Below, piece after piece: positions 33,551 to 55,746 of a stretch of DNA of 64,000 nucleotides. Source of the DNA: an uncultured archaeon (GTDB lineage Archaea > Altiarchaeota > Altiarchaeia > JAFGQM01). The stretch is taken from the NCBI GenBank assembly GCA_964619365.1, contig CAZUDQ010000001.1, positions 118,503 to 182,502 on the forward strand, given 5' to 3'. The position numbers were made by a program, and so were the translations under genes. The notes under the pieces are model-generated. The model had not been told where the DNA came from. It saw nothing but the letters and a program-made list of their open reading frames with translations, and did no database searches. How positions within the stretch are numbered: the first letter of the stretch is position 1; the number at the start of each line of letters is the position of its first letter.

Positions 33551-33694
33551 TTTATAGATTTATTAATATTACAAGTAAAAATTGTGCCTTTTTAGAACTT
33601 GATAGTATAAAAAGGTTTGGGAATGTCTTTTCCCTAAGTAGTTTTTGTTTAGAAATATATAAAATTAAGAGGAGCTTTTTTTCAAGGGAAGAAT

Positions 33695-34765
33695 ATGATA
33701 CCTATTGCAAAACCACTTATTGGCCAGGAGGAAAAATCAGCCGTAAATGATGTCCTAAATTCCGGCATGATTGCAGAAGGGCCAAGGGTAAAAGAATTTG
33801 AAGAGAATTTCGCGGAGTTCTGTGGGACAAAACACGCAGTTGCGGTTAATTCGGGGACTGCTGCACTTCATGTAGCGCTCATGGCAGCGGGAATAAAGCC
33901 AGGTGATGAAGTCATAACAACACCGTTTAGCTTCATTGCAACAGGGAATTCTATTCTTATGGCGGGCGCAAAACCCGTCTTTTGCGATATTGATTCAAAA
34001 ACCTTCAACATCAGCCCAGAAAGCATTAAAGAGGCCATAAGCGACAAAACCAGGGCAATAATGCCTGTGCATCTTTTTGGGCAGTGTGCTGACATGAGTG
34101 CAATTAATGAAATCGCGCAAGACTCGGGTGTGCGAGTCATCGAAGACGCCTGTCAAGCACACGCTGCGGAGTGGAAAGGAGTAAAAGCGGGCGCTCTTGG
34201 AGATGTTGCCGGCTTCTCATTTTACCCGACAAAGAATATGACGACTTCAGAAGGTGGTATGGTTACGACAAACGATGATAAAATAGCCAAGATGTCAAGA
34301 ATATACCGCAATCACGGAATGGCACGCAGGTATTACCACGATTACATGGGCTTTAACTACCGGATGACAGATATCTGCGCTGCAATCGGTCTTGCTCAAC
34401 TAAGAAAGCTTGACGGCTTTACAAAAAAGCGCCGCGATAATGCAAATTATCTTGATAATAATCTAAACGGTGTTGTAACTCCATATGTCTCGCCTGATGC
34501 AAAGCATGTTTACCACCAGTACACAATAATGGTGGAGAATCGCGATACTGTTATCGAAAAACTAAAGGAAGCCGAAATCGGTTGCGGGGTGTATTATCCT
34601 GTTCCGATAAACGAGCAGACTTATTACAAAGAACTTGGATATTCTACACAAAGCACGCCAAACTCAAATGATGTCGCAAAAAAGGTTCTTTCACTTCCAG
34701 TTCATCCGTCTGTTACAGAAGACAATCTTAAGCTAATTGCAAATACGCTAAATAATATAGCATAA
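33695..34765 (+). CDS. wbpE: DegT/DnrJ/EryC1 PLP-dependent sugar aminotransferase (WbpE-like, UDP-2-acetamido-3-amino-uronate forming)
   Basis: DegT-family motifs (FCGTKHAVAVNSGTAALH, PLP-Lys context SFYPTKNMTTSEGG). Sits in an operon with WbpB/WbpA/WbpD homologs. Confidence 0.8.
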   Translation: MIPIAKPLIGQEEKSAVNDVLNSGMIAEGPRVKEFEENFAEFCGTKHAVAVNSGTAALHVALMAAGIKPGDEVITTPFSFIATGNSILMAGAKPVFCDIDSKTFNISPESIKEAISDKTRAIMPVHLFGQCADMSAINEIAQDSGVRVIEDACQAHAAEWKGVKAGALGDVAGFSFYPTKNMTTSEGGMVTTNDDKIAKMSRIYRNHGMARRYYHDYMGFNYRMTDICAAIGLAQLRKLDGFTKKRRDNANYLDNNLNGVVTPYVSPDAKHVYHQYTIMVENRDTVIEKLKEAEIGCGVYYPVPINEQTYYKELGYSTQSTPNSNDVAKKVLSLPVHPSVTEDNLKLIANTLNNIA

Positions 34766-34766
34766 A

Positions 34767-35390
34767 ATGAGGATATTATTACTTTCGCCACACACTGATG
34801 ATGTAGAACTTGGAGCTGGGGCAAGTGTCTCGCGTTTTGTCCGTGAGGGTCATGAGATAAAATGGATTGCATTCTCAAGTTGCGAGTCTTCACTACCTTC
34901 AGGTTTTGCTAAAGGTCAATTGAGGGGTGAGTTCGAAGAATCTGCAAAGGTTTTGGGCATTAAAGATATTACTTGTATGGACTTTTCTAACAGGACGTTT
35001 TTGGGTGGGCGCCAAAAGATACTCGATAAATTAATCGAAGTAAAAAAGGACTTTTCTCCGGAACTTATACTCTGCCCTTCGCGTTCTGATTTACATCAGG
35101 ATCACCAAGTTGTCTTTGAGGAAGCTTTTCGCGCATTTAAAAAAAGTTCGAGCATACTCGGGTATGAGGAGCCCTGGAATAATCTTGAATTCAAACCTTC
35201 TTTTTTCCAAAAGGTGACTGAAGAGGACATGAACAAAAAGTTGCTTGCATTATCAAAATACGAGACGCAAGGGACTCTCTCTCGCAATTACTTCGACGAA
35301 GATTTCATAAAGGGTCTTGGGCGCGTTCGTGGCGTACAGTGTAATTCACTATTTGCAGAGGCCTTTGAAGTATATAGATGGATTCAATAA
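34767..35390 (+). CDS. PIG-L/LmbE family N-acetylglucosaminyl deacetylase
   Basis: LSPHTDDVELGAG (HxDD-type zinc motif) and downstream HQDH. Confidence 0.7.
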   Translation: MRILLLSPHTDDVELGAGASVSRFVREGHEIKWIAFSSCESSLPSGFAKGQLRGEFEESAKVLGIKDITCMDFSNRTFLGGRQKILDKLIEVKKDFSPELILCPSRSDLHQDHQVVFEEAFRAFKKSSSILGYEEPWNNLEFKPSFFQKVTEEDMNKKLLALSKYETQGTLSRNYFDEDFIKGLGRVRGVQCNSLFAEAFEVYRWIQ

Positions 35391-36442
35391 CAGTTCTTGT
35401 AACAGGGGCGGGAGCGCCGGGCATTGCCGGGACGATATACTCACTTAAGAACAACCCTGACAACCGCAGTATCCGCATAGTAGGTGTTGATATGAAAGAA
35501 GACGTTGTTGGAAAATACCTCTGCGACGCTTTTTTTAAGATTCCTGCACCTTCTGAACGAGGTTATCTGGACACAGTTATACGAATCTGTGACAATGAAG
35601 GTGTTGATGTCATTTTACCTCAGACTACAAACGAACTTTATCCTCTTTCACAAGGAAAAGAGGCTCTGGAAAAAGCTGGAATAAAACTTGCTCTTTCAAA
35701 CGCGGATGCAATCGAAAAAAGTAACGATAAATACGAGCTTTTTAAGCTCTGTGAAAAGCTTGGCGTGCCTGTGCCAAAATACGCTCTTGTAAGTGATTTT
35801 GAGTCTCTCATGTCTTTTGCAGGCAAGCTAGGCTTTCCAAATAAGCCTTTTGTCATAAAACCGCCTGTTGCAAGCGGTATGCGGGGCCTTAGGATTGTGG
35901 ACGATGAAAAATCGCTTAAAGAAATGTTTTATGATGAAAAGCCAAATGGCGCGTATTGCAGAAGCGAACAACTGCGAACAACACTTGGCGAAAAGTTCCC
36001 GCCGCTTCTTGTTATGGAATACCTTCCTGGTGATGAGTACTCTGTTGACTGCTTTAGGGGAGAAAGCAAGAATGTTGCTATTCCACGAAAACGGGATCTC
36101 ATAAGAACGGGAATCACATTTAACGGAACGCTTGAAGAAAGAAAAGATATCATTGAGTGGTCCACTAAACTCGCTGAAGAAATTGGTCTTGAGTACTGCT
36201 TTGGGTTTCAGTATAAGCTTGACGAAAAGGGAGTGCCAAAGATGCTTGAAAGCAATCCACGAGTCCAGGGGACTATGGTTGCCGCAACAATTGGTGGGGC
36301 AAATGTCATATACGCTTCAATACTTCTTGGGCTGGGTGAAAGAGCACCGGAGTTTAACATAAAGTGGGGTGCGAGGATAATGAGATATTGGGGAGGTATT
36401 GGCAGCCTTGATGACAAACGAATAGCCGACATTCTAGTATGA
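35378..36442 (+). CDS. ATP-grasp domain ligase (carboxylate-amine ligase type)
   Basis: FVIKPPVASGMRGLRIV, EYLPGDEYSVDCF and the general ATP-grasp B/C-domain layout. Confidence 0.7.
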   Translation: MDSITVLVTGAGAPGIAGTIYSLKNNPDNRSIRIVGVDMKEDVVGKYLCDAFFKIPAPSERGYLDTVIRICDNEGVDVILPQTTNELYPLSQGKEALEKAGIKLALSNADAIEKSNDKYELFKLCEKLGVPVPKYALVSDFESLMSFAGKLGFPNKPFVIKPPVASGMRGLRIVDDEKSLKEMFYDEKPNGAYCRSEQLRTTLGEKFPPLLVMEYLPGDEYSVDCFRGESKNVAIPRKRDLIRTGITFNGTLEERKDIIEWSTKLAEEIGLEYCFGFQYKLDEKGVPKMLESNPRVQGTMVAATIGGANVIYASILLGLGERAPEFNIKWGARIMRYWGGIGSLDDKRIADILV

Positions 36443-37050
36443 AATCTTGGGAAAAATATCAGGGCCTTCTAATGACGGGAAACTGGCACGTCCACAGCAA
36501 TTATACTGATGGGCAGGATTCTGTGCTTCGTATGTGCGATGCTGCAGTTGGCGCCAGGCTCCCACTTCTTGCGTTTACAGAACACGTAAGAAAAGAACTC
36601 TCTTATGATTTTGACGCTTTTTTGTCTGATCTAAAATCAGTAAGAGCCGCGTTCCCGGAAATTGTTATTTTAAGTGGGTGTGAAGCAAAAATTCTTCCTG
36701 GGGGGGACATAGATGCTCCACCGGAACTGATAAAAACTGTTGATTATCCCATAGTTTCTTTCCATTCTTTTGAGGGTGGTCGGGACGAGTATCTTGAAGC
36801 CCTAAAAAAGGCAGTAAACGTTCCTGAGGTATGTGCATGGGGGCATCCTGGGGCTCTAGCAGAAAAAAGAGCTTTTGAGTTTTCTGATGAAGAATTAAAT
36901 GAAGTTTTTGGTATTATGGCAAAAAACAAGGTTCTTTTAGAATCAAACGAAAAATATGGGGTGCCAAAAAAGGACTGGGAAGACCTTGCTGTAAATGCGG
37001 GAGTCAGCTTGGTTCGGGGCCGCGATTCCCATTCTACAGGAGACATTTAG
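36439..37050 (+). CDS. PHP-domain phosphoesterase
   Basis: [13 protein letters not shown]...FTEHV metal-binding His/Asp pattern of PHP (polymerase/histidinol-phosphatase) domains. Confidence 0.5.
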
Positions 37051-37055
37051 AAAAG

Positions 37056-37553
37056 ATGGTAAAAATCCATGAGAGTGCAGAAGTCTCAGAAAAGGCGAAA
37101 ATCGGTGAAGGAACAAGTATATGGCATCAAGCTCAAGTTCGTGAGAATGCAGTAATCGGAAAGGACTGTAATATTGGAAAGGGCGTCTATATAGACTCTG
37201 GTGTAAAAATCGGGGACGCCTGCAAAATCCAGAATTATGTTTCAGTCTATCACGGTGTTGAGATAGAAGATGACGTATTTGTCGGACCGTCGGCAACATT
37301 CACAAACGACTTTAGGCCTCGCGCATTCATCTGGAATGAAGAAAAGGTTGGGAAGACACTTGTCAAAAAAGGCGCATCAATCGGAGCGAATTCCACAATA
37401 GTCTGTGGTGTTGAGATTGGAGAATATGCTATGGTCGGTGCGGGAAGCGTTGTTACAAAAGACGTTCCACCTTTTGGGCTTGTCTATGGAAACCCTGCAA
37501 AGCTGTGCGGGAAGGTAAATAAAGAAGGTGAAGTAATTGAAAGATATGATTAA
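37056..37553 (+). CDS. wbpD: Hexapeptide-repeat (LbH) sugar N-acetyltransferase (WbpD-like)
   Basis: Repeated [LIV]G-x4 hexapeptides ([25 protein letters not shown]...). Adjacent to WbpB/WbpA homologs. Confidence 0.75.
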
Positions 37554-38484
37554 AGCGGCAGTTATCGGTGTCGGTAACATGGGTAAGCATCACGCCCGAG
37601 TTTATTCAGAATTAAAGGACTGCGCGCTTGTAGCAGTTGTTGATAAGAACGAAAAAGCGGCAAAGGAAGTCGCAACACAATTTGACTGTGATTATTATAC
37701 TGATGTATCAGACATTATTGGAAAGGTAGACTGCGCGAGTGTTGTAGTACCAACCTTCCTGCACAGGGATGTCGCAATCACTCTTCTTGAAAACGGGATT
37801 GATGTGCTTCTTGAAAAGCCTATTGCAATGTCAACAGGGGAAGCTGATGAAATAATACGTTGCGCCGAGGAAAACGGGAGAATACTACAAATTGGACATA
37901 TAGAGCGCTTCAACCCGGCAATAATTGCAGCAAGAGACGAAATTAACGATAACCCGATAGCTCTTGAAGCAAATCGTATTGGACCTTCTGGAGGTCGCAT
38001 ATCTGATTGTGGCGTTATCTTAGACCTTATGATCCATGACGTGGATTTGATTTTAAGTCTTGTCGATTCGGCGGTCAAAGATGTTTATGCGAGCTCAAAA
38101 ACAATGTCGGGAAAGCATGAAGATTACGCAAAGGCTCTCCTCACTTTTGAAAACGGGACTATTGCAAGTGTTTGTGCCAGCAGGATAAGCCAAAAGAGGG
38201 AAAGAACGCTTAACATCACACTTCCGGATAAGTATTTATGTGTTGACTGCATGTCAAAATCACTTTCCATACACAAACAAGGCAAATACGAAAAGGAAGA
38301 TGGCGTCACCAGTTTCAGTGACATTGTAGAACGTCCACTTATCAGGCAAAGTGAACCCTTAAAGCTTGAACTTGAAAGTTTCTTGTCATGTGTCAGAGAA
38401 AGGACCGTGCCTGTTGTGACGGGTGCCCAGGGAAAACTAGCACTTGAGATTGTAGAAGGGATTTTAGAGGCGGCAAATGGGTGA
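37537..38484 (+). CDS. wbpB: Gfo/Idh/MocA family oxidoreductase (WbpB-like UDP-GlcNAcA 3-dehydrogenase)
   Basis: N-terminal Rossmann [15 protein letters not shown] motif (LLEKPIAMS), ~315 aa. Confidence 0.8.
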
Positions 38485-39739
38485 AGTTATAGCAGTCTAC
38501 GGCCAGGGGAAGATGGGACTACCTCTAGCACAAGTCTTAGCAAAATATTTTAAGGTTTATGGTGTTGACATCAATAAATCCCTGATTGATGCACTTTCCC
38601 GCGGGGAAGACGTTCTCCCAGAAGAGCCTGGGGTTGGCGAACTCATAAAGAAGAACTCTGAATCTGGAAGTTATGTTGCAACAACAGATTTTAGTCTGGC
38701 ATCAAAAAACGCAACTATCCACATTATCCTTGTTCCAACCCTTATCAAAGAAAATAAGGTTGATTTATCGATTGCAAAAAGCGTTGCGCGTGAGATATCA
38801 AAGAGATTAAAAAAAGGAGATATTGTTATTACAGAATGTACTATGCCTCCGGGCTCAACAAAATTACTACTACCTATTCTTGAGGAGTCTGGACTTAAGC
38901 TTGGCGATTTTTCAATCGCGCATGCCCCTGAAAGAACGTACTCTGGCCATGCTATTCGTGATATTGAAGGCGAGTATCCAAAGATACTTGGAACAAGCGA
39001 CGCGCGTTCCTTAGACAGGCTAAAAAAGGTCTATGAAACGATAAATTCAAAGGGCGTCATTACTATGCCAGGCGTCAAAGAGGCTGAGCTTGTAAAAGTC
39101 TTTGAAGGCTGCTACCGTGACCTTAATATCGCTCTTGCAAACGAGCTTTCCTATGTCTGTGAAAGAGAAGGAGTCGATGCCGCAAGCGTCTTTTCGGCAG
39201 CAAATACTCAAAAGTATTGCAAAATACATAATCCAGGTTATGTTGGAGGGCACTGCATCCCATATTACCCATGGTTTGTGATTGATGAGAAAACAAAACT
39301 CATGAAAACTGGGAGGGGAATAAACGAAGCAGTAATAGAACGCCTGATATCTAAATGCGATGGGGGACTAAAAGATGTTGGGATAATTCCAAAGGATGCA
39401 AAAATAGTCGTTTTGGGACTTACTTTTAGGGGTGGCGTGCGCGAGTTTGAGCATAGCGCTGCGTTTCCGTTTGTCAAAAGGGCAAAAGAAGAGTTTGAGG
39501 AGGTACTTGCTTATGACCCACTATGTTCTAAGGAGGATTATGCCCGTTTTGGAGTAGAGAAAATAGAGCTGCCATGCGAGGCTGATTGTGCAATAGTACT
39601 TGCAGACCATGATGAGTTCTTGGGGACTGGGGTTTTGAAATCATGCCCAACAATCAAGGTTCTAATTGACGGCAGGGGTATCTGTGACCTTAATGAGCTG
39701 CGCAAGAGAGGAATTATCTGCGGAGGTCTTGGTAAATGA
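38477..39739 (+). CDS. wbpA: UDP-N-acetyl-D-glucosamine/mannosamine 6-dehydrogenase (UDP-glucose/GDP-mannose dehydrogenase family; WbpA/WecC-like)
   Basis: Three-domain UDPGDH architecture with catalytic Cys context (GGHCIPYYP), 420 aa. Confidence 0.85.
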   Translation: MGEVIAVYGQGKMGLPLAQVLAKYFKVYGVDINKSLIDALSRGEDVLPEEPGVGELIKKNSESGSYVATTDFSLASKNATIHIILVPTLIKENKVDLSIAKSVAREISKRLKKGDIVITECTMPPGSTKLLLPILEESGLKLGDFSIAHAPERTYSGHAIRDIEGEYPKILGTSDARSLDRLKKVYETINSKGVITMPGVKEAELVKVFEGCYRDLNIALANELSYVCEREGVDAASVFSAANTQKYCKIHNPGYVGGHCIPYYPWFVIDEKTKLMKTGRGINEAVIERLISKCDGGLKDVGIIPKDAKIVVLGLTFRGGVREFEHSAAFPFVKRAKEEFEEVLAYDPLCSKEDYARFGVEKIELPCEADCAIVLADHDEFLGTGVLKSCPTIKVLIDGRGICDLNELRKRGIICGGLGK

Positions 39740-41004
39740 ATATCTTAATCATGTGTCGCTGGTATTACCCACATTGCGGTGGGGCGACAGTGCGTGTTCA
39801 TAACTTCGCAAAATACTTGACAAAGGCCGGACATAATGTCCACATTCTGACACACAATCCAAAAAGTATCGAACAGTGCAACAAAGATGATGTGGCGCCC
39901 TTATTTGAAGAAAGTGCAGAAGGGTTTAAGATAACTCGCCTGCCTTACCGTAGTTTTTTGGGGTTGAAAGGCAACTGGGGAACATCAATCCCTGAAATGG
40001 CAGTTCTTGCAACAAAGATAATTGAGAAGGAAAATATCGATATAATCATGTCGCATAACCCACCTTATCTTGTCGGAGCTTCAAGCTACAAAGCCTCATT
40101 TGCAACAGGCGTTCCGTTTGTGACTATTGTCCATGACATTTGGGGGGCATCACACTACGGCGCTTTAGAAAACGCAGTCGGAAAGACTCTTGAAGCATTC
40201 GTACTTAAGAAATCAAAGAAAATCATTGTTCCTGTCGAAGGAATAGGAAAAGAGCTTTCAGAAACTTATGGCATCCCAAAAGAAAGGTTTGCAACAGCAA
40301 AAACAGGCGTTGATTCAAATGAATTTAGGCCTATTGCAATCGGTCTTAAGGAGAAAGCCATTTTAAGGGAAAAGCTTCTTGAAAATGGAGCGCCTAAGGA
40401 AAAGATTAATGACTGCCTTTCTGCAAAATCAAGACCTATTCTTTTCTTGGGAAACCTTGCACCATGGAAAGGTGGGATGTTTTTCTTGCGTGCTGCAAAA
40501 GAGATTCTGAAGGAAGAACCTAGTGCGTTTTTTGTTCTTGTTGGCCACGGCGCGCAGTTTGAGGAGCTTATAAGTGAAACAAAGAAACTGGGTATATCGG
40601 ACCGCGTTCTTTTTGCAGGCGTCCTTAGGCACGAAGACTTGCCACTCATAATAAACCTTGCAAAAGTCTGTGTTTCAACATTCCCAAAGCCAAGCTCTGT
40701 GGGGAGGAAAGCTAACATGCAGGCAAGGCCTGTTTCAACATTAGAGTTTCTATCCTGCGGAAGGCCTGTTGTCGTAAGTGACGTTCCGGGAATCCGCGAC
40801 ATAATAATAAAGGATGGAGAAAGTGGTATTTTATTCGAGCCAGAGAACATCGGCGAACTGACAAAAGGAGTTCTTTTGTTACTGAAAAAGAAGGGTAAAG
40901 CAGAATCCCTTGGACGGGAAGCAAGAAAGAATATTAAGGACGAAACTTGGGAAGTGACTGCAAAAGTCGTTGAAATGGTATTAAACGAAGTTCTAAAAGA
41001 TTAA
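39736..41004 (+). CDS. Glycosyltransferase family 4 (GT-B, retaining)
   Basis: E-x7-E motif region STLEFLSCGRPVVVSDVPGIRD, typical GT4 N-terminal acceptor domain. Confidence 0.8.
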   Translation: MNILIMCRWYYPHCGGATVRVHNFAKYLTKAGHNVHILTHNPKSIEQCNKDDVAPLFEESAEGFKITRLPYRSFLGLKGNWGTSIPEMAVLATKIIEKENIDIIMSHNPPYLVGASSYKASFATGVPFVTIVHDIWGASHYGALENAVGKTLEAFVLKKSKKIIVPVEGIGKELSETYGIPKERFATAKTGVDSNEFRPIAIGLKEKAILREKLLENGAPKEKINDCLSAKSRPILFLGNLAPWKGGMFFLRAAKEILKEEPSAFFVLVGHGAQFEELISETKKLGISDRVLFAGVLRHEDLPLIINLAKVCVSTFPKPSSVGRKANMQARPVSTLEFLSCGRPVVVSDVPGIRDIIIKDGESGILFEPENIGELTKGVLLLLKKKGKAESLGREARKNIKDETWEVTAKVVEMVLNEVLKD

Positions 41005-41010
41005 CTGATT

Positions 41011-42159
41011 ATGGATGTATTAATGCTTCTTGCCAATGGTTTTCCACCAGACATCAGAGTTTATAAGGAAGCAAAGACTCTAACTGAAAACGGAAAAGAT
41101 GTGGAGATTTTTTGCTGGGATCGGCTTGGGGAATTTAAAGCTGATGATAAGCTAGATGACATTAAAGTTACGCGCGTAGGACCCAAATCAAGTTATGGCA
41201 ACACTAATGAAAACATGCTTATGATGCCTTTTTTTTGGAAAAAGTGTTTCTTTAAATGTTTAAATAGTGGTGCAAAAGTCATACATTGTCATGATTTTGA
41301 TACACTTATCCCTGGATTTTTAGCGGCAAAACTTTCGGGTAAGAAAATAGTATATGATTCGCATGAGAATTATACTGCAAGCATAAAAAATAAAGTACCA
41401 TCCCCCATATGTAAGATAATATCCATAACCGAAAAATTTATGTCAAAAAGATGTGATTATGTCATAACAATTAATCAACTTATTGGAGATATATTTGAGT
41501 CTAATGGCGCAAAAGTTTTAATCATTATGAACGCACAGGATTCACGTCAGTATGATATAGAATATCTTCAACTAGAAAAAATACGAGAAAAGTTTGCAGG
41601 TAAAGATAAGTTTGTCATATGTTATATCGGTGGATTGCGCAAAGAACGATGTTTAGGTGAGTTATTGGAATCAATAGATTATCTAAGTAAAACAGAAAAA
41701 AATAAGGTAAAAATACTCATTATAGGTAGAGGTCCAGACAAGGAAGAATTAGAAAAGACTATAAATACAAAATATAACAAAAATGCGTGCATCAAAGACT
41801 TTATAGATCCTTTTTTAGTTCCAGCATATACTCTTGCAAGTGATGGAGTTTATTGTGTCGGAAATCCTAAACTTTATAAAAATGTAGAATATGCCGCATC
41901 AAATAAGCTTTTTGAGTCAATATGTGCCCATAAACCAATAATCGTAAATGATGTTGGCATAATGGGGGATGTAATCTCAGAAAATAGAATTGGGGCTATA
42001 GTTAAGAATACTCCACAAAGCATAGCAGGGGGTATACGCAAAATAATGCAAATGTCCAAATCAAAAGAATTTTACCAGAAGTCAAAGAAAGCGGAGATAA
42101 AATATAATTGGGAATCTGAGAGTAAAAAACTTCTTAATATGTATTCAAAAATAATTTGA
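41011..42159 (+). CDS. Glycosyltransferase, GT4-like (GT-B fold)
   Basis: N-terminal GT4-like domain (IHCHDFDTLIPGFLAAKLSGKKIVYDSHE) and C-terminal Rossmann-like half. AT-rich gene. Confidence 0.65.
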   Translation: MDVLMLLANGFPPDIRVYKEAKTLTENGKDVEIFCWDRLGEFKADDKLDDIKVTRVGPKSSYGNTNENMLMMPFFWKKCFFKCLNSGAKVIHCHDFDTLIPGFLAAKLSGKKIVYDSHENYTASIKNKVPSPICKIISITEKFMSKRCDYVITINQLIGDIFESNGAKVLIIMNAQDSRQYDIEYLQLEKIREKFAGKDKFVICYIGGLRKERCLGELLESIDYLSKTEKNKVKILIIGRGPDKEELEKTINTKYNKNACIKDFIDPFLVPAYTLASDGVYCVGNPKLYKNVEYAASNKLFESICAHKPIIVNDVGIMGDVISENRIGAIVKNTPQSIAGGIRKIMQMSKSKEFYQKSKKAEIKYNWESESKKLLNMYSKII

Positions 42160-42361
42160 ACTAACCCATAAAAAACTAAAATGATACACAAGAAAAAGGA
42201 ATTAAAAGAATGGTGTGAGGAATCCGCAATAGAATTTGGTAATATCAATGTGGAATTAGGAAAAGTTATTGTTGAATATGATAGATTGCTTAACCAAGGT
42301 AATAAAATTTGAATGGTCCTTATAAAACGTGTTTTAGTAAAAAACAATCCAAATAATAGCG

Positions 42362-43126
42362 ATGAAAACTGTCATTCTTGCTGGTGGTTTGGGAACCAGG
42401 TTAAGTGAGGAAACCGAGGTGCGCCCAAAACCTATGGTCGAAATCGGTGGAAAGCCGATACTTTGGCATATAATGAAAACATATTCACATTGTGGTTTTA
42501 ATGATTTTGTTATATGTCTTGGATATAAGGGATATATGATAAAGGAATGGTTCTCTCATTATTCCCTTCACAATTCTGATCTCTCAATAGACCTTAAGAA
42601 AAACAATATAGAAATCCTTAACAATAAGACTGAGGACTGGAAAGTTACTCTTGTTGATACTGGAAAAGACACTATGACTGGGGGGCGTTTAAAACGCGTA
42701 AAAGAGTATCTTGATGATGAGACCTTCATGATGACTTATGGTGATGGGGTTGGAGATATTGATATAAAATCACTTGTCAATTTCCATAAATCCCATAGAA
42801 AACTCGCAACAGTTACTGCGTGCAACCCAGAAGGCCGCTTTGGGGTAATAAAACTAGGTGGTGAGAAAGCAACGAGCTTCGGTGAAAAAAAGGATACTGA
42901 TGAATGGATTAATGCTGGTTTTTTTGTTCTTGAACCAAATGTATTGGATTACATATCAGGGGACGCTATGCCTTGGGAAAAAGACCCACTTGAGAATCTC
43001 TCAAAAGATGGAGAACTAATGGTTAATCGCCACACGGGCTTTTGGAAACCGATGGATAAATATAGTGATAAATTAGAGCTTGAAAGGATTTGGGGGACTG
43101 GAAAGGCTCCTTGGAAAACATGGTAA
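42362..43126 (+). CDS. rfbF: Glucose-1-phosphate cytidylyltransferase
   Basis: MKTVILAGGLGTRLSEETEVRPKPMVEIGGKPILWHIMK..., a full-length match to RfbF/DdhA. Confidence 0.9.
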   Translation: MKTVILAGGLGTRLSEETEVRPKPMVEIGGKPILWHIMKTYSHCGFNDFVICLGYKGYMIKEWFSHYSLHNSDLSIDLKKNNIEILNNKTEDWKVTLVDTGKDTMTGGRLKRVKEYLDDETFMMTYGDGVGDIDIKSLVNFHKSHRKLATVTACNPEGRFGVIKLGGEKATSFGEKKDTDEWINAGFFVLEPNVLDYISGDAMPWEKDPLENLSKDGELMVNRHTGFWKPMDKYSDKLELERIWGTGKAPWKTW

Positions 43127-43127
43127 A

Positions 43128-43961
43128 ATGGATTGGAAAGAAAAAAACGTGCTTGTGACGGGAGGTAATGGTCTTGTGGGCTCTCATTTAGTAAAAAATT
43201 TATGTGAAAAGGGGGCAAATGTCATATGTTTAAGCCGTTCACATAATCCAAATAGTTATTTTGCAAGCGAGAAGCTAGAAACCCTCTGTGCTGAAGAATA
43301 TGGCGACTTAAAGGACTTTGCTCGTATTCTTGATGTGGTATGTAAAAATGAGGTTGATTATATATTCCATCTCGGTGCTCAGGCAATTGTTAAAACGGGT
43401 ATAAAAAATCCACTTGAAACTTTTGATAGTAATATCATGGGCACAGCAAATATATTAGAAGCTGCAAGGTTATACGGAGAAGTGGAAGGCATTGTTGTTG
43501 CATCTTCAGACAAAGCTTATGGGAGTTCTGAAAAATTGCCATATACTGAAGATATGCCACTGCATGGCGATTATCCATATGATGTTTCTAAATCCTGCAC
43601 AGATCTTATCTCACAAAGTTATTCCAAAAGTTATGGTCTTCCCGTTTGTGTGGCAAGGTTTGGAAATATTTATGGGGAAGGGGATCTTAATTTCAATCGT
43701 ATAATACCCGGATGCATACGTGCAGGTATTCTTAACGAATGTCTGAACATCAGGAGTAATGGAAAGCTTATACGTGAATATGTTTATGTAGGAGATGTAG
43801 TGTCAGGTTATTTATCATTATCGGAAAACATGAAAAAGACCTGTGGGGAAGCATTTAATCTTTCAAGTGGTGAGGAACTAACTGTACTTGATGTCGTAAA
43901 ACAAGTTTCCAGCGTACTTGGTAAAAATGTAAAATACTTGATAATTCACCCTGTGAAATAA
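43128..43961 (+). pseudogene. rfbG: CDP-glucose 4,6-dehydratase with a frameshift near the 3' end; the C-terminal ~45 aa are encoded in another frame at 43925-44080
   Basis: VLVTGGNGLVGSHL Rossmann and SDKAYG / Y..SK catalytic region in frame 0 up to a stop at 43959-61. The conserved C-terminus CEIRKQTLSSKKVKEKLGWEPKFSFADGMKRTVSWY reads in the -1 frame up to the stop at 44078-80. Confidence 0.75.
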
Positions 43962-44090
43962 GAAAACAGACACTTTCGTCAAAAAAGGTAAAAGAAAAAT
44001 TGGGTTGGGAACCAAAATTTAGTTTCGCAGACGGTATGAAAAGGACTGTTAGTTGGTATACAGACTTCTTCTTCAAATAAACTATTAACA

Positions 44091-45017
44091 ATGCCGTTTA
44101 AAGGAGAGCGTGTAGTAGTCACCGGGGCCTCTGGTTTTATTGGTAAGCATCTAACCGAAAGGCTTGCTTTAGAAGATTGTAAAGTTTATAGCTTCTGCCA
44201 CGAATGTCCAGTTACCAAGCAGGAGAAATCCACCACAATAAATGTAGATATCGCAAAAGATACGGAGAAACTTAAGGCCACACTTAATGAAATAGAACCT
44301 GAAATAATATTCCATTTAGCTGCGAAAGTTGATAGATCGCGCGATTTAGGAATTTTAGGTGAAATAGTAAAAAATAATATTTTGGGTACAACAAATCTTC
44401 TGAGCGCTCTTGATAACACTGATTTTTTACATTTTATAAATACAGGTTCTTCTGAAGAATATGGGGTGGGAGTCGTACCTTTGAGTGAGGACCAAGAGCC
44501 AAATCCATTATCTCCGTATTCTGCTGCAAAAGCATCAACAACGTTAATATGCCAAATGCTTGCAAACAACATGGGGCTTCCAATAACAACACTTAGGCCT
44601 TTTTTGACTTACGGGCCCGGCCAAGGGCCAAAAATGTTCATACCCTCACTAATAATCTCAGCAATTAAACTCCAAGATTTTAACATGACTGACGGAATGC
44701 AATCCCGTGAGTTCAACTATGTTGAAGATATAGTGGAGGGGTACGTATCAACCGCCCTGAATAAGAAGACTTTTGGCGAGGTTATAAACCTTGGTAGTGG
44801 GAAAGAATATCTTGTTAGGGATGTAGCTAAAATGATAAATGATTTTTTGGATAATCCAATAGAACTAAACTTTGGCGCAATCGCTCGCCGAGAAGGAGAA
44901 CCCGCCCGTCATTATTGTTCTAATAAGAAGGCGCGAGATCTTCTTGGGTGGGAACCAAAGGTCGATTTGGAAACCGGCCTTAAACAAACTATCTCTTGGT
45001 ATAAGGAGAATTGTTAG
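44091..45017 (+). CDS. NAD-dependent epimerase/dehydratase (SDR) family; probable CDP-4-keto-6-deoxyglucose reductase/epimerase
   Basis: VVVTGASGFIGKHL, YSAAK catalytic dyad, C-terminal LGWEPKVDLETGLKQTISWY. Directly follows rfbF-rfbG. Confidence 0.7.
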   Translation: MPFKGERVVVTGASGFIGKHLTERLALEDCKVYSFCHECPVTKQEKSTTINVDIAKDTEKLKATLNEIEPEIIFHLAAKVDRSRDLGILGEIVKNNILGTTNLLSALDNTDFLHFINTGSSEEYGVGVVPLSEDQEPNPLSPYSAAKASTTLICQMLANNMGLPITTLRPFLTYGPGQGPKMFIPSLIISAIKLQDFNMTDGMQSREFNYVEDIVEGYVSTALNKKTFGEVINLGSGKEYLVRDVAKMINDFLDNPIELNFGAIARREGEPARHYCSNKKARDLLGWEPKVDLETGLKQTISWYKENC

Positions 45018-46115
45018 ATGAATATCAAGAGCGATAAAGGGGGGGCTAAAGGGAAAACATTATCCATTTGTATACCTACTTGGAATAGAAAGGACGACCT
45101 ACTCAAGAACCTTGATATTATAAATCTTCGTGCAAAAGAGGCTTCGTGTAATGATGAAATTGAAATTTGTATTTCAGATAACGCCTCACACGATGGGACA
45201 TGGGAGGCAGTACTAAATTATTCTAAAAATAGTAAAGTAAACATTCAATACCAAAGGAATAATGAAAACCTTGGACATGATAGAAACATACTAAAGGTAG
45301 CCAATCTCGCAACTGGTAAATATATTTGGTTTTTGGGTGATGATGATTTTATAGGGGTGGGTTCCCTTAAGTTTTTATTCGATATTATGGGGACTAGCAA
45401 TGAGATTAATGTCATAAATTTGATAAACAATGAAAGCTTGAAAAAAGACGTGCATTTTGAGATAATAAAGTCGCCCTGGACAACTGCAATATCTTATAAT
45501 TTTTTAGATGGTTACACCATCTCTAATGTTATATGCAATAGGGAAATGCTATCTCAAGTTATGAAACGTCACGGGGATATCATTGAGGAGGGCATTGGTT
45601 GTCTATATATACATCGATTCTTGTACAGTTTAATACTTTTGGAAAATTCAAACAGTACACATTACTTCCTCAGAGGCAAAGTTATGGAATTTGGGCAAAA
45701 GCGCCATATGTTTGGTATTAAAAATGAGATGAAAGTTCGTCTTGGACGCAACAAAATATCGACAATACTTAGAAAATACTTCCCAGAATATTCAAATATT
45801 TTGAAAACTAACTCGAGGTGGGAGATGATATTTGCAATTGAAGTTTTTGAGCGAAGTTGTTACGGGGCAGTATGCCCAAAGGAAATAACTAACTCCTTAA
45901 TTGACTACATTTGGGATAATATGAGTATAAACGGCGCACTTTTAAACACACTGTCCTTATTGAAAATAAAGTTTACGCCTGAAGATTTGAGGTATGTCTT
46001 TATGGAAATGATATTCAAAACTACTATACTAAAAAACAAACAGGGTATTATACAAAGGATTAGGGCTGAGCGCAAAAAACGTGGTGAAAGCTTCATTTCG
46101 CCAAGGGAATATTGA
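45018..46115 (+). CDS. Glycosyltransferase family 2 (GT-A)
   Basis: LSICIPTWNRKDDL...ICISDNASHDGT...FLGDDDF (DxD). Confidence 0.7.
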   Translation: MNIKSDKGGAKGKTLSICIPTWNRKDDLLKNLDIINLRAKEASCNDEIEICISDNASHDGTWEAVLNYSKNSKVNIQYQRNNENLGHDRNILKVANLATGKYIWFLGDDDFIGVGSLKFLFDIMGTSNEINVINLINNESLKKDVHFEIIKSPWTTAISYNFLDGYTISNVICNREMLSQVMKRHGDIIEEGIGCLYIHRFLYSLILLENSNSTHYFLRGKVMEFGQKRHMFGIKNEMKVRLGRNKISTILRKYFPEYSNILKTNSRWEMIFAIEVFERSCYGAVCPKEITNSLIDYIWDNMSINGALLNTLSLLKIKFTPEDLRYVFMEMIFKTTILKNKQGIIQRIRAERKKRGESFISPREY

Positions 46116-47950
46116 TGGGTGCAGTTATATTTGGTAGTTGTGGGGATAGTAAAAAACTAGAAAATCCAGGTGAAGATTTTGATTTCTATACCAAAGGTGA
46201 GATCAATATCTGGAGAAAATGCTCGCCATTCTTCTTCTCAGGCAAAATGCCAATTTTAAACAATGATGAAGATGTGGGTATAATAATACAGGGTTATGTA
46301 ATTCTAAATGAAGATATACAGGATTCTACTAAGAATTGGAAGGAAACGGCTAGTAGGCTTATTGCGGAATATGAACGAGGGGGCACCGAATCTATTTTAA
46401 ATTCTATAAAAACTGGAGCATTCAATATCATTTTATTTGATTTTAGAACGAATCTGATGTTTGTTATAAATGATAGATTTGGGTTATTCCCACTTTTTTA
46501 TCATCAAGATAAATACAATCTGGTATTTGGTACAAGGACCAAAGAAATTTTAAATATAAAAAAATTTGAACCAGATTGGACATCTATAGCAGAGTTCTTA
46601 GAATATGGGTATGTTCTCGGGGATAGAACATACTTCGAGGGGGTCAGGCTTATGGGGCCTGGATCAGTATTAAGTTACAATCTTGGTGACAAGACAATTA
46701 AAATAGAAAGTTATTGGGAAATTAATTATGATAAAAATATATCAGAAAAAGATATGGCGAGTGAAGCTCTAAGATTATTTAAAACTTCGTGCAAGCGCTT
46801 ATATACAAAAGATTATGGATACATTATACCGTTAAGCGGTGGACTTGATTCAAGGCTAAATGCGTATGGATTTTCCAATGTGGGCAAGATTACTACACTT
46901 ACCTTCGACCGGAGCAAAAGTGGCAAGGAGTATAAGATAGCAAAAAAGATTTCAGATAAAATTGGGTGTAATCATATTTTTAAAAGTATAGAATCCAAAG
47001 GTATACTTGACTCGCCAAATAATTTTTTAAGGATAACTGAGGGGTATGAAGACATGTCACTTAATTTTCTAAAGTTATACCAAGAGTTCGAGGGCAAAGT
47101 TATTGTGGATGGTTACCTTGGTGATGTAGTTTTAGGTGGAACGTATTATAGTAAATTAAAAAAGAGGCCTGGAGATATCCTAAACCAGTTTTTAGGGAAG
47201 TCTAAGGTGACCGATGGGTGTAATGGATTAAAAAAGGAACTAAATGTTTCTTTTTTCACAGAAAAGGAATTAGAAAACCTGTTTTCTAATGAAATATCTA
47301 AAAAAATAAAGGATGGGATTAATGCCCATAATGATTTCTTAACAAAAGAAATGGAAATTCTATCCAATAAATTTAAGTATAAGGAAGAGATGATTGAGTT
47401 TTTTAAGATAAATAATCGGGGCCGACGTTTTATAAATCTGGGGGGGCATTGGCAGGAGGATAAAAATGAACGCATAGTACCTTTCTTTGACTATGATTTC
47501 TTTGATTTTTGTATGAATATTCCTATTGAAGAGCGAGCCTTTCACAAAGTATATTATAAACTTCTGTCAAAAATGGATGATTTGGGTAAAATAGTTTATA
47601 ACCACAGCGGTATAAGCGCAAACTCGCCATATAAATTACAACTTATGACTGAATATTTAAATGAGATATGGCTTAAACAAAAGAAGTTTATAAATCGTCT
47701 TACAAAAGGCAGATATTGTAAACCCGATACCTATGCCCCAATAGCTGAGTGGGTTAGAGACTCTGAGAACGAAAAAACTATAATGGATTCAATGAATTGG
47801 ACTCTTATAAACAAGAGCGAAGTTGAAAGATTATTCAATGAACACAAGAATTTTACGGGGGATAATAGTAAAAAGATAGTCAGACTTTTCTCATTTTCAC
47901 TTTGGTGGGATAAAATCTATTTGAAACATTTAGAAGAACATCAAACATGA
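46112..47950 (+). CDS. Asparagine synthetase (AsnB)-like amidotransferase lacking the N-terminal Cys nucleophile
   Basis: PP-loop synthetase domain IPLSGGLDSRLNAY is conserved. The N-terminus is MMGAVIFG rather than MCGI, so the glutaminase Cys2 is absent. 612 aa. Confidence 0.7.
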   Translation: MMGAVIFGSCGDSKKLENPGEDFDFYTKGEINIWRKCSPFFFSGKMPILNNDEDVGIIIQGYVILNEDIQDSTKNWKETASRLIAEYERGGTESILNSIKTGAFNIILFDFRTNLMFVINDRFGLFPLFYHQDKYNLVFGTRTKEILNIKKFEPDWTSIAEFLEYGYVLGDRTYFEGVRLMGPGSVLSYNLGDKTIKIESYWEINYDKNISEKDMASEALRLFKTSCKRLYTKDYGYIIPLSGGLDSRLNAYGFSNVGKITTLTFDRSKSGKEYKIAKKISDKIGCNHIFKSIESKGILDSPNNFLRITEGYEDMSLNFLKLYQEFEGKVIVDGYLGDVVLGGTYYSKLKKRPGDILNQFLGKSKVTDGCNGLKKELNVSFFTEKELENLFSNEISKKIKDGINAHNDFLTKEMEILSNKFKYKEEMIEFFKINNRGRRFINLGGHWQEDKNERIVPFFDYDFFDFCMNIPIEERAFHKVYYKLLSKMDDLGKIVYNHSGISANSPYKLQLMTEYLNEIWLKQKKFINRLTKGRYCKPDTYAPIAEWVRDSENEKTIMDSMNWTLINKSEVERLFNEHKNFTGDNSKKIVRLFSFSLWWDKIYLKHLEEHQT

Positions 47951-47973
47951 TATATCCTAGCCTCTAATCAAGA

Positions 47974-49467
47974 CTATATTGAATTCGCATCAGCTTCTCC
48001 AAAGAACTTATCTTCAAGCTTAAGGAAAGAAAGGAAAAATCGCATCTCTTTTTCGCTAAATGCCTTAAGAACTCCCATGAGTGCAAAATAAAAGAGTGCT
48101 CCAATGCCACATACGAGGATTATCTCTATCCAGCCTGAAGGGGAAAACGCTAAGACAATAAATGCCATTGCAATTGACGAGATAACTGCCTTTAGAAGGA
48201 ATGGCGCACTTACTTCAAGTTTTACAAACTTCTTTGAGATTATTTGTGAGCTTATGTAAAGTCCGACAAAGGCAATAAATGTTGAAATGGCAGCACCAAT
48301 CAGTCCAAGTGTTGGTACAAGGAATAGGTTAAGTGCTATATTGAGTATTCCAAAGGCTGCAAGTAAAATAGCGTTCCAATAAACTTTTTTCTCTATGAAA
48401 AACACTGTTGAATTTATTGTAAAAAGAGATAGGAATATTGTCGAAATGGCAACAATCGGTGTCACCCACGCAGCACCTGCCAAAAACTCGTTTGTTGCCA
48501 TAGATCTTGTGAACTCAGTTGCAAGGATACTAAGACCAAATGCTGCAGGTATTGCAAGAAGCATGAAATATCGGAAACTGTAGCTTAGGTATTTCATGAC
48601 ATCTTTGCTTCTTGCCTCATCATGGGCGCGCGTGAGTGGGACAAGAAGGTTTATACGTATGGGGTTAAGAAGGATGGAGACTGATGCCCCTATTGTATAG
48701 GCTACAGAATAGACACCAACGGCTGAGGCCCCCAGGAAAAAACCTATGACGTACCTATCGCCAAGATTAAGGAGGTTTGATGAAAAGCTTCCTGCAACCA
48801 TTGGAAAACCAAACTTGACATACTCAAGAGACTGTCTGATGCTTGGTACGGAAGGACCAAAGGTCTTACATACTGCAAGTACACAAAAAATCAGAACTGA
48901 AAGTTGGACTACAATAAAGGACATTACAACCTCATATAAACCCATTCCAAAAAGCAAGAAAATTGATGCCAGTAAAAGAGGACCAAGACTATAGATTATA
49001 AGAAGCGTCGAATAACTGCCCATGCGGCGTTTTATGCGGAATGACTCAAGGAAAGGAGTTAATGGTGCTTGAACTATGAGTAGAATCGCTCCAAGTTGTA
49101 TCACTGCCGTTGCGTCTGGTGCTCCAAAGACCGTATTTGCCAAAAAACTAGCTGAAAAAAATAATACAAGAGCTCCAATAAAAGACATCAATAATGAAAA
49201 GGTTCCGGCAGAGAATATCCCCTTTGAAATCTTCTTTTTGTCATTTTCAGATGACAGCATGCGTATAACACCATAGTTGGAACCCAGATTTATAAATGGC
49301 TGGATAAACGCCAAGGTTACAATAAGGGTTGAATAAACGCCGTACCCTGCCACGCCAAGATAAAGAGTAAGTATCGGAAGAAAGATTATTGGCCTAAGGC
49401 GCATTACTGCCTCTGATATCGCGACTATTCCGACATCCTTTGTAAATTTCTTATATTTGTCACTCAT
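47974..49467 (-). CDS. Wzx/AglR-type oligosaccharide flippase (MOP superfamily, Polysacc_synt)
   Basis: 497 aa with ~14 predicted TM helices. Polysaccharide-biosynthesis flippase-like N-terminus. Located in the glycan locus. Confidence 0.75.
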   Translation of the reverse strand: MSDKYKKFTKDVGIVAISEAVMRLRPIIFLPILTLYLGVAGYGVYSTLIVTLAFIQPFINLGSNYGVIRMLSSENDKKKISKGIFSAGTFSLLMSFIGALVLFFSASFLANTVFGAPDATAVIQLGAILLIVQAPLTPFLESFRIKRRMGSYSTLLIIYSLGPLLLASIFLLFGMGLYEVVMSFIVVQLSVLIFCVLAVCKTFGPSVPSIRQSLEYVKFGFPMVAGSFSSNLLNLGDRYVIGFFLGASAVGVYSVAYTIGASVSILLNPIRINLLVPLTRAHDEARSKDVMKYLSYSFRYFMLLAIPAAFGLSILATEFTRSMATNEFLAGAAWVTPIVAISTIFLSLFTINSTVFFIEKKVYWNAILLAAFGILNIALNLFLVPTLGLIGAAISTFIAFVGLYISSQIISKKFVKLEVSAPFLLKAVISSIAMAFIVLAFSPSGWIEIILVCGIGALFYFALMGVLKAFSEKEMRFFLSFLKLEDKFFGEADANSI

Positions 49468-55119: not shown

Positions 55120-55746
55120 TTACAATAGTTCTGAGAGGTCGAAAATCACTTCGTCTGGATCAGCCTCTTTTGCCACGTCATTGCGCCCGTTAAGCTTAAG
55201 CACTGTATGGCATCCGGCAGCCCTGCCTGCGATTATATCGTACTCTGTATCGCCGATAAATATTGCCTCTTCTGGTTTTACACCAAGCACGGACAATGCT
55301 TTTTCGACTGGTTCTTTGTGTGGTTTTTTGAACTCTGCGTCCTCTTCCCCCACAATTGCGTCAAAAAAGTGCAGGATACCGACTTCGGCTAAGGTCTTTT
55401 CAATCACCCCTCTTGGAGACGTTGAAACGACTGCGAGTTTGCAGTTCCTGTCTTTTAACGACTGTAATGTTTCTGTTATGTTCTTAAAAATCTTAATCTG
55501 CGGTATACCCTCTATCCATACCTCTTTAAAGTCTTCTCTTATCTTTTCTTTTTCGGGGTCTGAAAGGCCGCCAACAAGACGAGGAAGGGTCTCATCTACG
55601 GATTTTCCGAAAAGCTCGCGGGAGAATTCATCTTCAGAGAGTTCCCTTTTGCCATTTAACCTTAATGCAGCGTTAAATGACTCGTGAATATTTTGAAAGG
55701 TGTCGACAAGTGTGCCGTCCATATCAAAAAGAAAAGCTTTATACAT
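55120..55746 (-). CDS. HAD-superfamily hydrolase (phosphoglycolate phosphatase / beta-PGM-like subfamily IA)
   Basis: FLFDMDGTLVDT motif I, STS motif II, GDTEYDI motif IV. Confidence 0.7.
   Translation of the reverse strand: MYKAFLFDMDGTLVDTFQNIHESFNAALRLNGKRELSEDEFSRELFGKSVDETLPRLVGGLSDPEKEKIREDFKEVWIEGIPQIKIFKNITETLQSLKDRNCKLAVVSTSPRGVIEKTLAEVGILHFFDAIVGEEDAEFKKPHKEPVEKALSVLGVKPEEAIFIGDTEYDIIAGRAAGCHTVLKLNGRNDVAKEADPDEVIFDLSELL

Follow-up and report, generated by a model that had tools for sequence, protein, structure and literature searches.

What does a zinc de-N-acetylase do in the company of a carboxylate-amine ligase and a phosphoesterase, in the middle of an archaeal sugar operon? 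The question arises from a 64,000-nucleotide stretch of DNA from an uncultured archaeon (Altiarchaeota; Altiarchaeia; JAFGQM01; assembly GCA_964619365.1, contig CAZUDQ010000001.1, positions 118,503 to 182,502), which we refer to as the window. Three open reading frames (ORFs) on its plus strand encode an LmbE/PIG-L family zinc de-N-acetylase (34767-35390, 207 amino acids (aa)), an ATP-grasp carboxylate-amine ligase of a family resembling carbamoyl-phosphate synthase (CPS) and PylC (35378-36442, 354 aa), and a PHP-family metal-dependent phosphoesterase (36439-37050, 203 aa). An initial reading made from the letters alone, the sequence-only reading, had called these domains and noted overlaps of 4 and 13 bp between the frames. 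The ORF list and direct inspection of the sequence bear this out: the LmbE and ATP-grasp frames share 13 bp (35378-35390), the ATP-grasp and PHP frames share 4 bp (ATGA at 36439-36442), and all three domains have Pfam matches over the gathering score. That reading also suggested an uncharacterised sugar-tailoring module, which our analysis supports, but it left the role of the PHP protein unexplained. Comparing the trio across genomes, we found that it is a horizontally mobile, self-contained cassette that is not specific to this operon. We propose, with a probability of roughly 0.45, that the cassette swaps the N-acyl group of surface-glycan amino sugars, taking a phosphorylated common acid as the donor and relying on a phosphatase afterwards. 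No description of a cassette composed of LmbE, ATP-grasp and phosphatase genes was found in the searchable literature.

The cassette recurs widely. Using an alignment of ATP-grasp homologues as the query, we retrieved 80 archaeal and bacterial loci and clustered all of their ORFs; a single-protein query of genome contigs had returned no loci. Adjacency was counted with sensitive hidden Markov models, with denominators (75 and 74) restricted to loci that offer room for the neighbour in question. An LmbE gene lies within 3 kb of the ATP-grasp gene in 67 of 75 loci and directly upstream of it in 52. Directly downstream, a PHP gene is found in 44 of 74 loci and a HAD_2 phosphatase gene in 15 of 74; a PHP or HAD gene is present within 3 kb in 62 of the 74, immediately downstream in 59 of these. 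Three further loci carry divergent HADs in the downstream slot, which brings the loci with a phosphatase to about 65 of 74. The deacetylase, ATP-grasp, phosphatase order and adjacency, with overlapping frames, extends across at least 10 phyla, and because the same order appears in dozens of unrelated genomes, the arrangement is far beyond chance. Among the ORFs of the 80 loci, no gene besides the cassette's own is conserved alongside it. In a Thermotogaceae locus, the slot downstream of the ATP-grasp gene is occupied by a MobA-like nucleotidyltransferase that replaces the phosphatase (L083:9062-9619).

The ATP-grasp family itself is large and phylogenetically scattered. More than 1400 homologues with 50-58% identity come from very diverse archaea and bacteria, and 419 clusters match at E<=1e-30 among 1.84 billion representative proteins, while the 40 relatives of the 1.2-Mb source genome that were searched, including a genome of the same genus, hold no close counterpart. 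Cultured carriers include Haloferax sp. YSSS75, Thermococcus gammatolerans, Methanofollis formosanus, Syntrophaceticus schinkii and Lutimonas saemankumensis. Its nearest neighbours in the tree belong to Aenigmarchaeota, Woesearchaeota and Methanobacteriaceae metagenome-assembled genomes, and the label archaea or bacteria has to change at least 5-10 times on the maximum-likelihood tree.

At both accessory positions, unrelated proteins have replaced one another repeatedly (non-orthologous displacement). The ATP-grasp tree, a quick maximum-likelihood reconstruction, gives minimum numbers of changes: the phosphatase type (PHP or HAD) switches at least four times, as does the deacetylase type (LmbE or a second, CE4-like protein). 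The latter was recognised in six loci without LmbE, where a 244-aa protein lies beside the ATP-grasp gene product, in the LmbE slot itself in four of them. This protein family (~240-260 aa; for example, L085:7267-8001, L087:9685-10461 and relatives) is matched by no Pfam or NCBIfam model and carries the motifs RHDxD, GHxxGxH, HRP and LxHP. When its AlphaFold2 (AF2) model, which has a predicted local distance difference test (pLDDT) score of 84, was searched with Foldseek, almost all of the ~35 best matches were chitin or peptidoglycan GlcNAc deacetylases of the CE4 family, at modest TM-scores of 0.4-0.55. A second group related to the first (hhalign 99.6%) is present in nine more loci, bringing the family to 15 of the 80. 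The motifs and the modelled fold point to a CE4/NodB-type de-N-acetylase. Moreover, a natural 591-aa protein, P0231, joins a CE4-like domain to an ATP-grasp of the cassette family in one chain; fusions exceeding 620 aa were also sought, and there were none. What looked like a fusion of LmbE to the ATP-grasp in L051 was dismissed as wrong-frame read-through of GC-rich DNA, and a cluster of ATP-grasp/HAD fusions in a protein atlas was kept as a lead only. The repeated swaps of deacetylase and phosphatase folds argue that the ligase requires both de-N-acetylase and phosphatase partners, whatever their fold, and the replacement of PHP by HAD phosphatases argues that the phosphatase step is part of the chemistry.

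Judged by their catalytic residues, all three window proteins are intact enzymes. The LmbE protein scores 62.9 bits against the PIG-L model PF02585 (cut-off 28.2) and thereby falls within the family. The P-H-x-D-D and H-x-D-H motifs, which supply zinc ligands and the general base in LmbE proteins, are intact in it (P8-H9-T-D11-D12 and H110-Q-D112-H113) and at least 95% conserved among 64 orthologues. It scores well below the equivalog models of the bacillithiol deacetylases (BshB1, 60.7 versus 182.5; BshB2, 24.2 versus 195), and its relatives in the PDB are 2ixd and diacetylchitobiose deacetylase. We predict a de-N-acetylase acting on a GlcNAc-type substrate. The PHP protein scores 41 bits against PF02811 (cut-off 26.4), and 11 of its residues are conserved in 35 full-length orthologues (H17, H19, D24, E48, H49, E82, H109, H136, E168, D196 and H198). 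These include the H17-x-H19 and D196-x-H198 motifs expected of metal-cluster ligands, so that profile and ligands agree on the family. It is predicted to be a phosphomonoesterase acting on a small molecule, a view supported indirectly by the HAD phosphatases that occupy the same slot.

The ATP-grasp protein matches PF15632 and PF21360, with 115.7 bits for ATPgrasp_Ter and 46.1 bits for PylC-like_N, both over the gathering score. Its AF2 model (pLDDT 93) retrieves 2pn1, CPS, PurK, RizA and PylC in Foldseek, with E values of 1e-17 to 1e-21. The hallmarks of the superfamily are present, namely the three-domain fold, the ATP-binding lysine (K161), the magnesium motif E291-x-N293 and an arginine (R295), all three sites being invariant, and an N-terminal TGAGAPGIxGT loop, R30, R237 and R239 are invariants specific to the family. 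The sequence-only reading had asked whether the ligase might be a housekeeping enzyme such as PurK or a CarB fragment. This identity was rejected: the protein reaches only tens of bits with the CarB, PurD, AccC and PylC models, whose cut-offs lie in the hundreds (CPSase, 35.9 versus 1027; purD, 31.9 versus 288; accC, 36.5 versus 626), and the genome has a CarB-like frame of 1077 aa on a different contig. From these scores, the protein is assigned to a separate CPS/PylC-like family that is neither PurK nor CarB. Sequence and fold searches of the PDB returned generic ATP-grasp relatives only, giving no clue to the substrate. The nearest solved structure, 2pn1, is an uncharacterised CPS-like protein (Exiguobacterium 'carbamoylphosphate synthase large subunit-like') and the nearest model is PRK12767 ('CPS-like proteins'), but the identity is 20% and the scores stay under the family cut-offs. 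Named homologues are all annotated as 'ATP-grasp domain-containing' or 'carbamoyl-phosphate synthase-like'.

In the window, the trio is embedded in a tightly packed unit (33695-42159, all on the plus strand) in which every intergenic gap is at most 6 nt or the genes overlap. The only TATA-like box seen lies at ~33653-33665, upstream of the first gene, and together with the spacing it makes co-transcription of the unit a reasonable assumption. The first gene encodes a DegT/WbpE-like pyridoxal phosphate-dependent aminotransferase (33695-34765; PF01041, E 1.5e-136), whose stop codon is separated from the LmbE start by 1 nt. Downstream of the PHP gene follow a hexapeptide-repeat, WbpD-like N-acetyltransferase (37056-37553; PF00132; NeuD/PglB/VioB family, 111 bits), a GFO/IDH/MocA oxidoreductase resembling the UDP-GlcNAc(A) 3-dehydrogenase WbpB (37537-38484), an NDP-sugar 6-dehydrogenase of the WbpA/WecC type (38477-39739; TIGR03026, 306 bits, over the cut-off) and two GT4 glycosyltransferases that end the unit (39736-42159; PF00534/PF13439). 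The best named model for the GFO-family enzyme is the archaeal UDP-GlcNAc 3-dehydrogenase (NF040723, 272.9 bits, under the 450 cut-off). Its gene more likely starts at ATG 37546, which has GGTGA upstream, than at the mechanically listed TTG 37537, and it would then overlap the acetyltransferase gene by 8 bp. The placement of the trio between the aminotransferase and the acetyltransferase and dehydrogenase genes, as described in the sequence-only reading, is thus correct. By Pfam and NCBIfam, all four WbpA/B/E/D enzyme families are present and contiguous around the trio, which accordingly sits within a WbpA/B/E/D-type pathway with UDP-GlcNAc3NAcA as the predicted sugar.

This pathway is part of an N-glycosylation locus. 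The GT4 pair is followed by an AT-rich block that contains CDP-hexose genes, a GT2 gene and a gene for a very divergent AsnB-like amidotransferase (46112-47950, plus strand; PF00733, 48.6 bits over part of the profile only; PF13537), which may carry out amidation at C-6 of the uronate or amidine formation. The opposite strand of the locus encodes a Wzx-type flippase, a 4-epimerase, an AglH-type GlcNAc-1-P transferase and AglB. The GC content is 33-37% at 40000-48000 and 43-45% elsewhere in the window; that of the cassette, 43%, equals the genome's own composition. In the AT-rich block, a CDP-glucose 4,6-dehydratase-like ORF (43080-43961; 43920-44080) covers positions 1-270 of the 332 in the GDP_Man_Dehyd profile and ends early, consistent with a frameshift that the earlier reading had noted. 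A strong HAD_2 hydrolase (150 bits) is encoded next to AglB on the minus strand (55120-55746).

The claim that the trio belongs to a diacetamido-sugar operon holds for the window and does not carry over to the family: Wbp-type genes accompany the cassette in only about one third of loci, and the cassette is therefore not tied to such operons. Among the 49 long loci, at least two of the DegT, GFO and hexapeptide acetyltransferase genes occur in 17 (11 of 21 archaeal and 6 of 28 bacterial), an NDP-sugar dehydrogenase lies near the cassette in only 13, and at least two recognised glycan genes are present in 36. The cassette is thus enriched beside 2,3-diamino-sugar genes and independent of those genes or of a uronate, and its glycan-gene context argues that it serves surface-glycan synthesis. 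AsnB, a WbuX-type amidotransferase, UDP-GlcNAc 2-epimerase and FemAB-family proteins also recur in the neighbourhood. The last of these, aminoacyl-tRNA-dependent transferases, are found near the cassette in six loci (including L036:5237-6265), which suggests peptide-like extensions on a free amine in some glycans.

From gene presence, overlaps, intact motifs, conservation, displacement and fusion, we infer substrates, step order and product as follows. Given its family and conserved zinc motif, LmbE would strip the N-acetyl group from a GlcNAc-derived residue, in the window locus probably a 2,3-diacetamido uronate. The ATP-grasp enzyme would then activate a carboxylic acid as an acyl-phosphate and join it to the freed amine. 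The acid itself would be phosphorylated, as the conserved phosphatase slot suggests, and PHP would remove the phosphate ester from the N-acyl product, after which the modified sugar may enter the N-glycan through the downstream GT4s and AglB. The firmest part of this scheme is that deacetylase and ligase act in sequence on one and the same amine, for which their adjacency, the displacement of the deacetylase by an unrelated fold and the fusion protein all argue. Re-acylation of a de-N-acetylated sugar, one of two options in the sequence-only reading, fits well with a deacetylase that is the most conserved partner, was displaced at least four times and was fused once. The cassette has no other conserved companion gene, which requires the co-substrate to be a common metabolite, and because the phosphatase is tied to the ligase gene rather than to a glycosyltransferase, we favour a phosphorylated common acid that is dephosphorylated after ligation. 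A precedent for coupling a phosphorylated unit first and dephosphorylating it afterwards is known from Campylobacter jejuni (Cj1438 and Cj1435; PMC11800379). Candidates are 3- or 2-phosphoglycerate, O-phosphoserine, O-phosphothreonine and similar compounds. The leading candidate product would be an N-glyceroyl group made from 3-phosphoglycerate, an attractive donor because its acyl-phosphate is 1,3-bisphosphoglycerate, because N-glyceroyl amino sugars exist and because their genes have been reported as unidentified; for the sugars of Tannerella and Vibrio vulnificus this was still so in 2017 (PMC5378307). That the cassette is the missing general machinery for N-glyceroyl or related hydroxyacyl or aminoacyl groups on archaeal N-glycans and bacterial surface glycans is a rather unlikely extension of this idea.

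Several points weigh against the acyl-swapping scheme. The phosphatase could act on another phosphate, for example that of a sugar phosphate or of a glycosyltransferase acceptor, and 9-12 loci have no phosphatase nearby. Methanoculleus offers a further comparison. A 2,3-diaminoglucuronic acid in the N-glycan of Methanoculleus marisnigri bears one acetyl group, one glyceroyl group and a C-6 amide (PMC11407970), a composition that matches the enzyme content of the window locus (Wbp genes, cassette and AsnB-like gene). Yet just two of the 48 Methanoculleus species genomes encode a window-type ATP-grasp, and a genome of 2,478,101 bp has none, so that the cassette is not supported as the maker of the M. 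marisnigri sugar. In another glycan locus, the 2,478,101-bp genome encodes a second-clade ATP-grasp with 22% identity (G048:C1, L106:9597-10748, minus strand), followed by a different PHP protein (PHP+PHP_C), a GT4 and a UDP-GlcNAc 2-epimerase. The pairing of ATP-grasp with PHP thus recurs in this genome, where glycerol-3-phosphate dehydrogenase and TagF-like genes lie next to the second-clade group; the protein of 466 aa that precedes the ATP-grasp there shows no significant resemblance to CE4. This distant second clade (~390 aa) is present in 26 of the 48 Methanoculleus genomes. In three methanogen loci, a second-clade ATP-grasp (L021:5131-6300, L022:4291-5544 and L027:4099-5277) and a CE4-like protein are encoded just upstream of an LmbE-ATP-grasp-PHP cassette.

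The gene set also invites comparison with low-molecular-weight thiol synthesis, where mycothiol is made by MshA-MshA2-MshB-MshC and bacillithiol by BshA-BshB-BshC. In both, an LmbE-family deacetylase frees the amine of GlcNAc and an ATP-dependent ligase acylates it, and the mycothiol pathway also has a GT4 and a phosphatase. By analogy, a glycosyltransferase would place GlcNAc on a phosphorylated acceptor, the phosphatase and LmbE would follow, and the ATP-grasp would add an unphosphorylated (amino) acid to the GlcN amine, to give either a residue within a glycan or a small, soluble glycoside. Besides the correspondence of glycosyltransferase, phosphatase, LmbE and ligase to MshA, MshA2, MshB and MshC, gene order lends this some weight: read from gene-order strings, a glycosyltransferase of the DUF354, GT4 or GT2 type directly adjoins the cassette in about 30-40 of 79 loci, DUF354 always beside LmbE, and the FemAB-family neighbours in six loci hint at amino-acid side chains. 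These glycosyltransferases, however, come from three unrelated families, and none adjoins the cassette in the window. The phosphatase gene keeps company with ATP-grasp and not with the glycosyltransferase, the loci are typical multi-glycosyltransferase glycan clusters, and the patchy distribution, with absence from a relative in the same genus, argues against a housekeeping small molecule. The ligase differs as well, being an ATP-grasp that works through an acyl-phosphate where the thiol pathways use the aminoacyl-tRNA synthetase-like MshC or BshC, and the window LmbE lies far under the BshB cut-offs; surface-glycan context and mobility further set the cassette apart. The mycothiol-type order fits the gene order and the variable glycosyltransferase less well than acyl swapping followed by dephosphorylation, and we consider it possible but doubtful.

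A different use of the same ligase has direct biochemical precedent. In Campylobacter jejuni, the ATP-grasp domain of Cj1438 joins serinol phosphate or ethanolamine phosphate to glucuronate as an amide, and Cj1435 dephosphorylates the product (PMC11800379). Like the chemistry proposed for the cassette, the HS:2 capsule pathway has an ATP-grasp form an amide on a sugar of a glycan from a building block that bears a phosphate, which a dedicated phosphatase then removes, but as a mirror image, with the sugar (GlcA) giving the carboxylate and the small molecule the amine. Transferred to the window, this would mean that the ATP-grasp joins the C-6 carboxylate of the diacetamido-uronate to a phospho-amine (phospho-serine, phospho-threonine or ethanolamine-P, in the style of Campylobacter HS:2 or of Methanococcus threonine), that PHP dephosphorylates the product and that LmbE performs an unrelated deacetylation. 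A uronate-forming dehydrogenase is indeed encoded in the window operon, threonine on uronates is known in Methanococcus, the precedent invoked by the sequence-only reading, and a HexNAc modified with threonine is suspected in an Asgard archaeon. Amidation nevertheless assigns no task to the deacetylase, the partner that is best conserved and that shows displacement and fusion, it would lack an NDP-sugar dehydrogenase nearby in all but the 13 long loci counted above, and an AsnB-like gene is already available in the window locus. The Campylobacter ligase is moreover TupA-like and fused to a GT2, in a pathway with dedicated phospho-amine enzymes and no deacetylase, and the TupA-like profile of the Cj1438C type found no match in the window ATP-grasp when its 6 Pfam family hits at E<=0.01 were inspected. 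We regard uronate amidation as improbable. More improbable still is that the three genes do not form one pathway, with PHP a regulatory or repair phosphoesterase (a CpsB-like tyrosine phosphatase or a nucleotidase) and the ATP-grasp making an unrelated metabolite. The best named PHP relatives are uncharacterised proteins and the PHP domains of PolX, and the HAD relatives include nucleotidases, as such a separation would allow; order and adjacency with overlapping frames in so many phyla speak against it, and the functional displacements at both accessory positions are difficult to account for unless the genes share a pathway.

The logic of removing one acyl group to install another is established. 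LpxC/LpxD in lipid A, TunE/TunC in tunicamycin and Dbv21/Dbv8 in teicoplanin-type biosynthesis are deacetylate-then-re-acylate pairs that use acyl groups carried by acyl carrier protein or coenzyme A. They likewise remove the acetyl group of a UDP-GlcNAc-derived unit in favour of another N-acyl group, but with thioester donors and no phosphatase, in contrast to the ATP-grasp activation proposed here. For the donor, FkbH/OzmB-type HAD glyceryl transferase-phosphatases offer a parallel, drawing glyceryl from 1,3-bisphosphoglycerate. There, too, a phosphatase step accompanies the use of a phosphorylated acid from glycolysis, and an ATP-grasp acting on 3-phosphoglycerate would form the same acyl-phosphate; the FkbH-type enzymes differ in loading an acyl carrier protein in polyketide pathways and share no homology with the ATP-grasp or PHP proteins of the cassette. 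What is new, then, is the combination of an ATP-grasp ligase with an obligatory phosphatase, both of its helper enzymes being modularly replaceable.

Surface glycans of archaea and bacteria carry many unusual N-acyl groups, such as glyceroyl, aminoacyl and hydroxybutyryl, and most of the genes for their biosynthesis are unknown. An N-acyl-swapping cassette would serve as a genomic marker from which such decorations could be predicted and would offer a pathway testable in vitro with three small, soluble and well-modelled proteins, and it is a possible tool for glyco-engineering. The swapped accessory enzymes provide a clean example of function kept while folds change. If true, the N-glyceroyl reading would describe a previously undescribed glycan decoration made directly from glycolytic intermediates, and it would explain the N-glyceroyl sugars of Tannerella and Vibrio vulnificus (PMC5378307).

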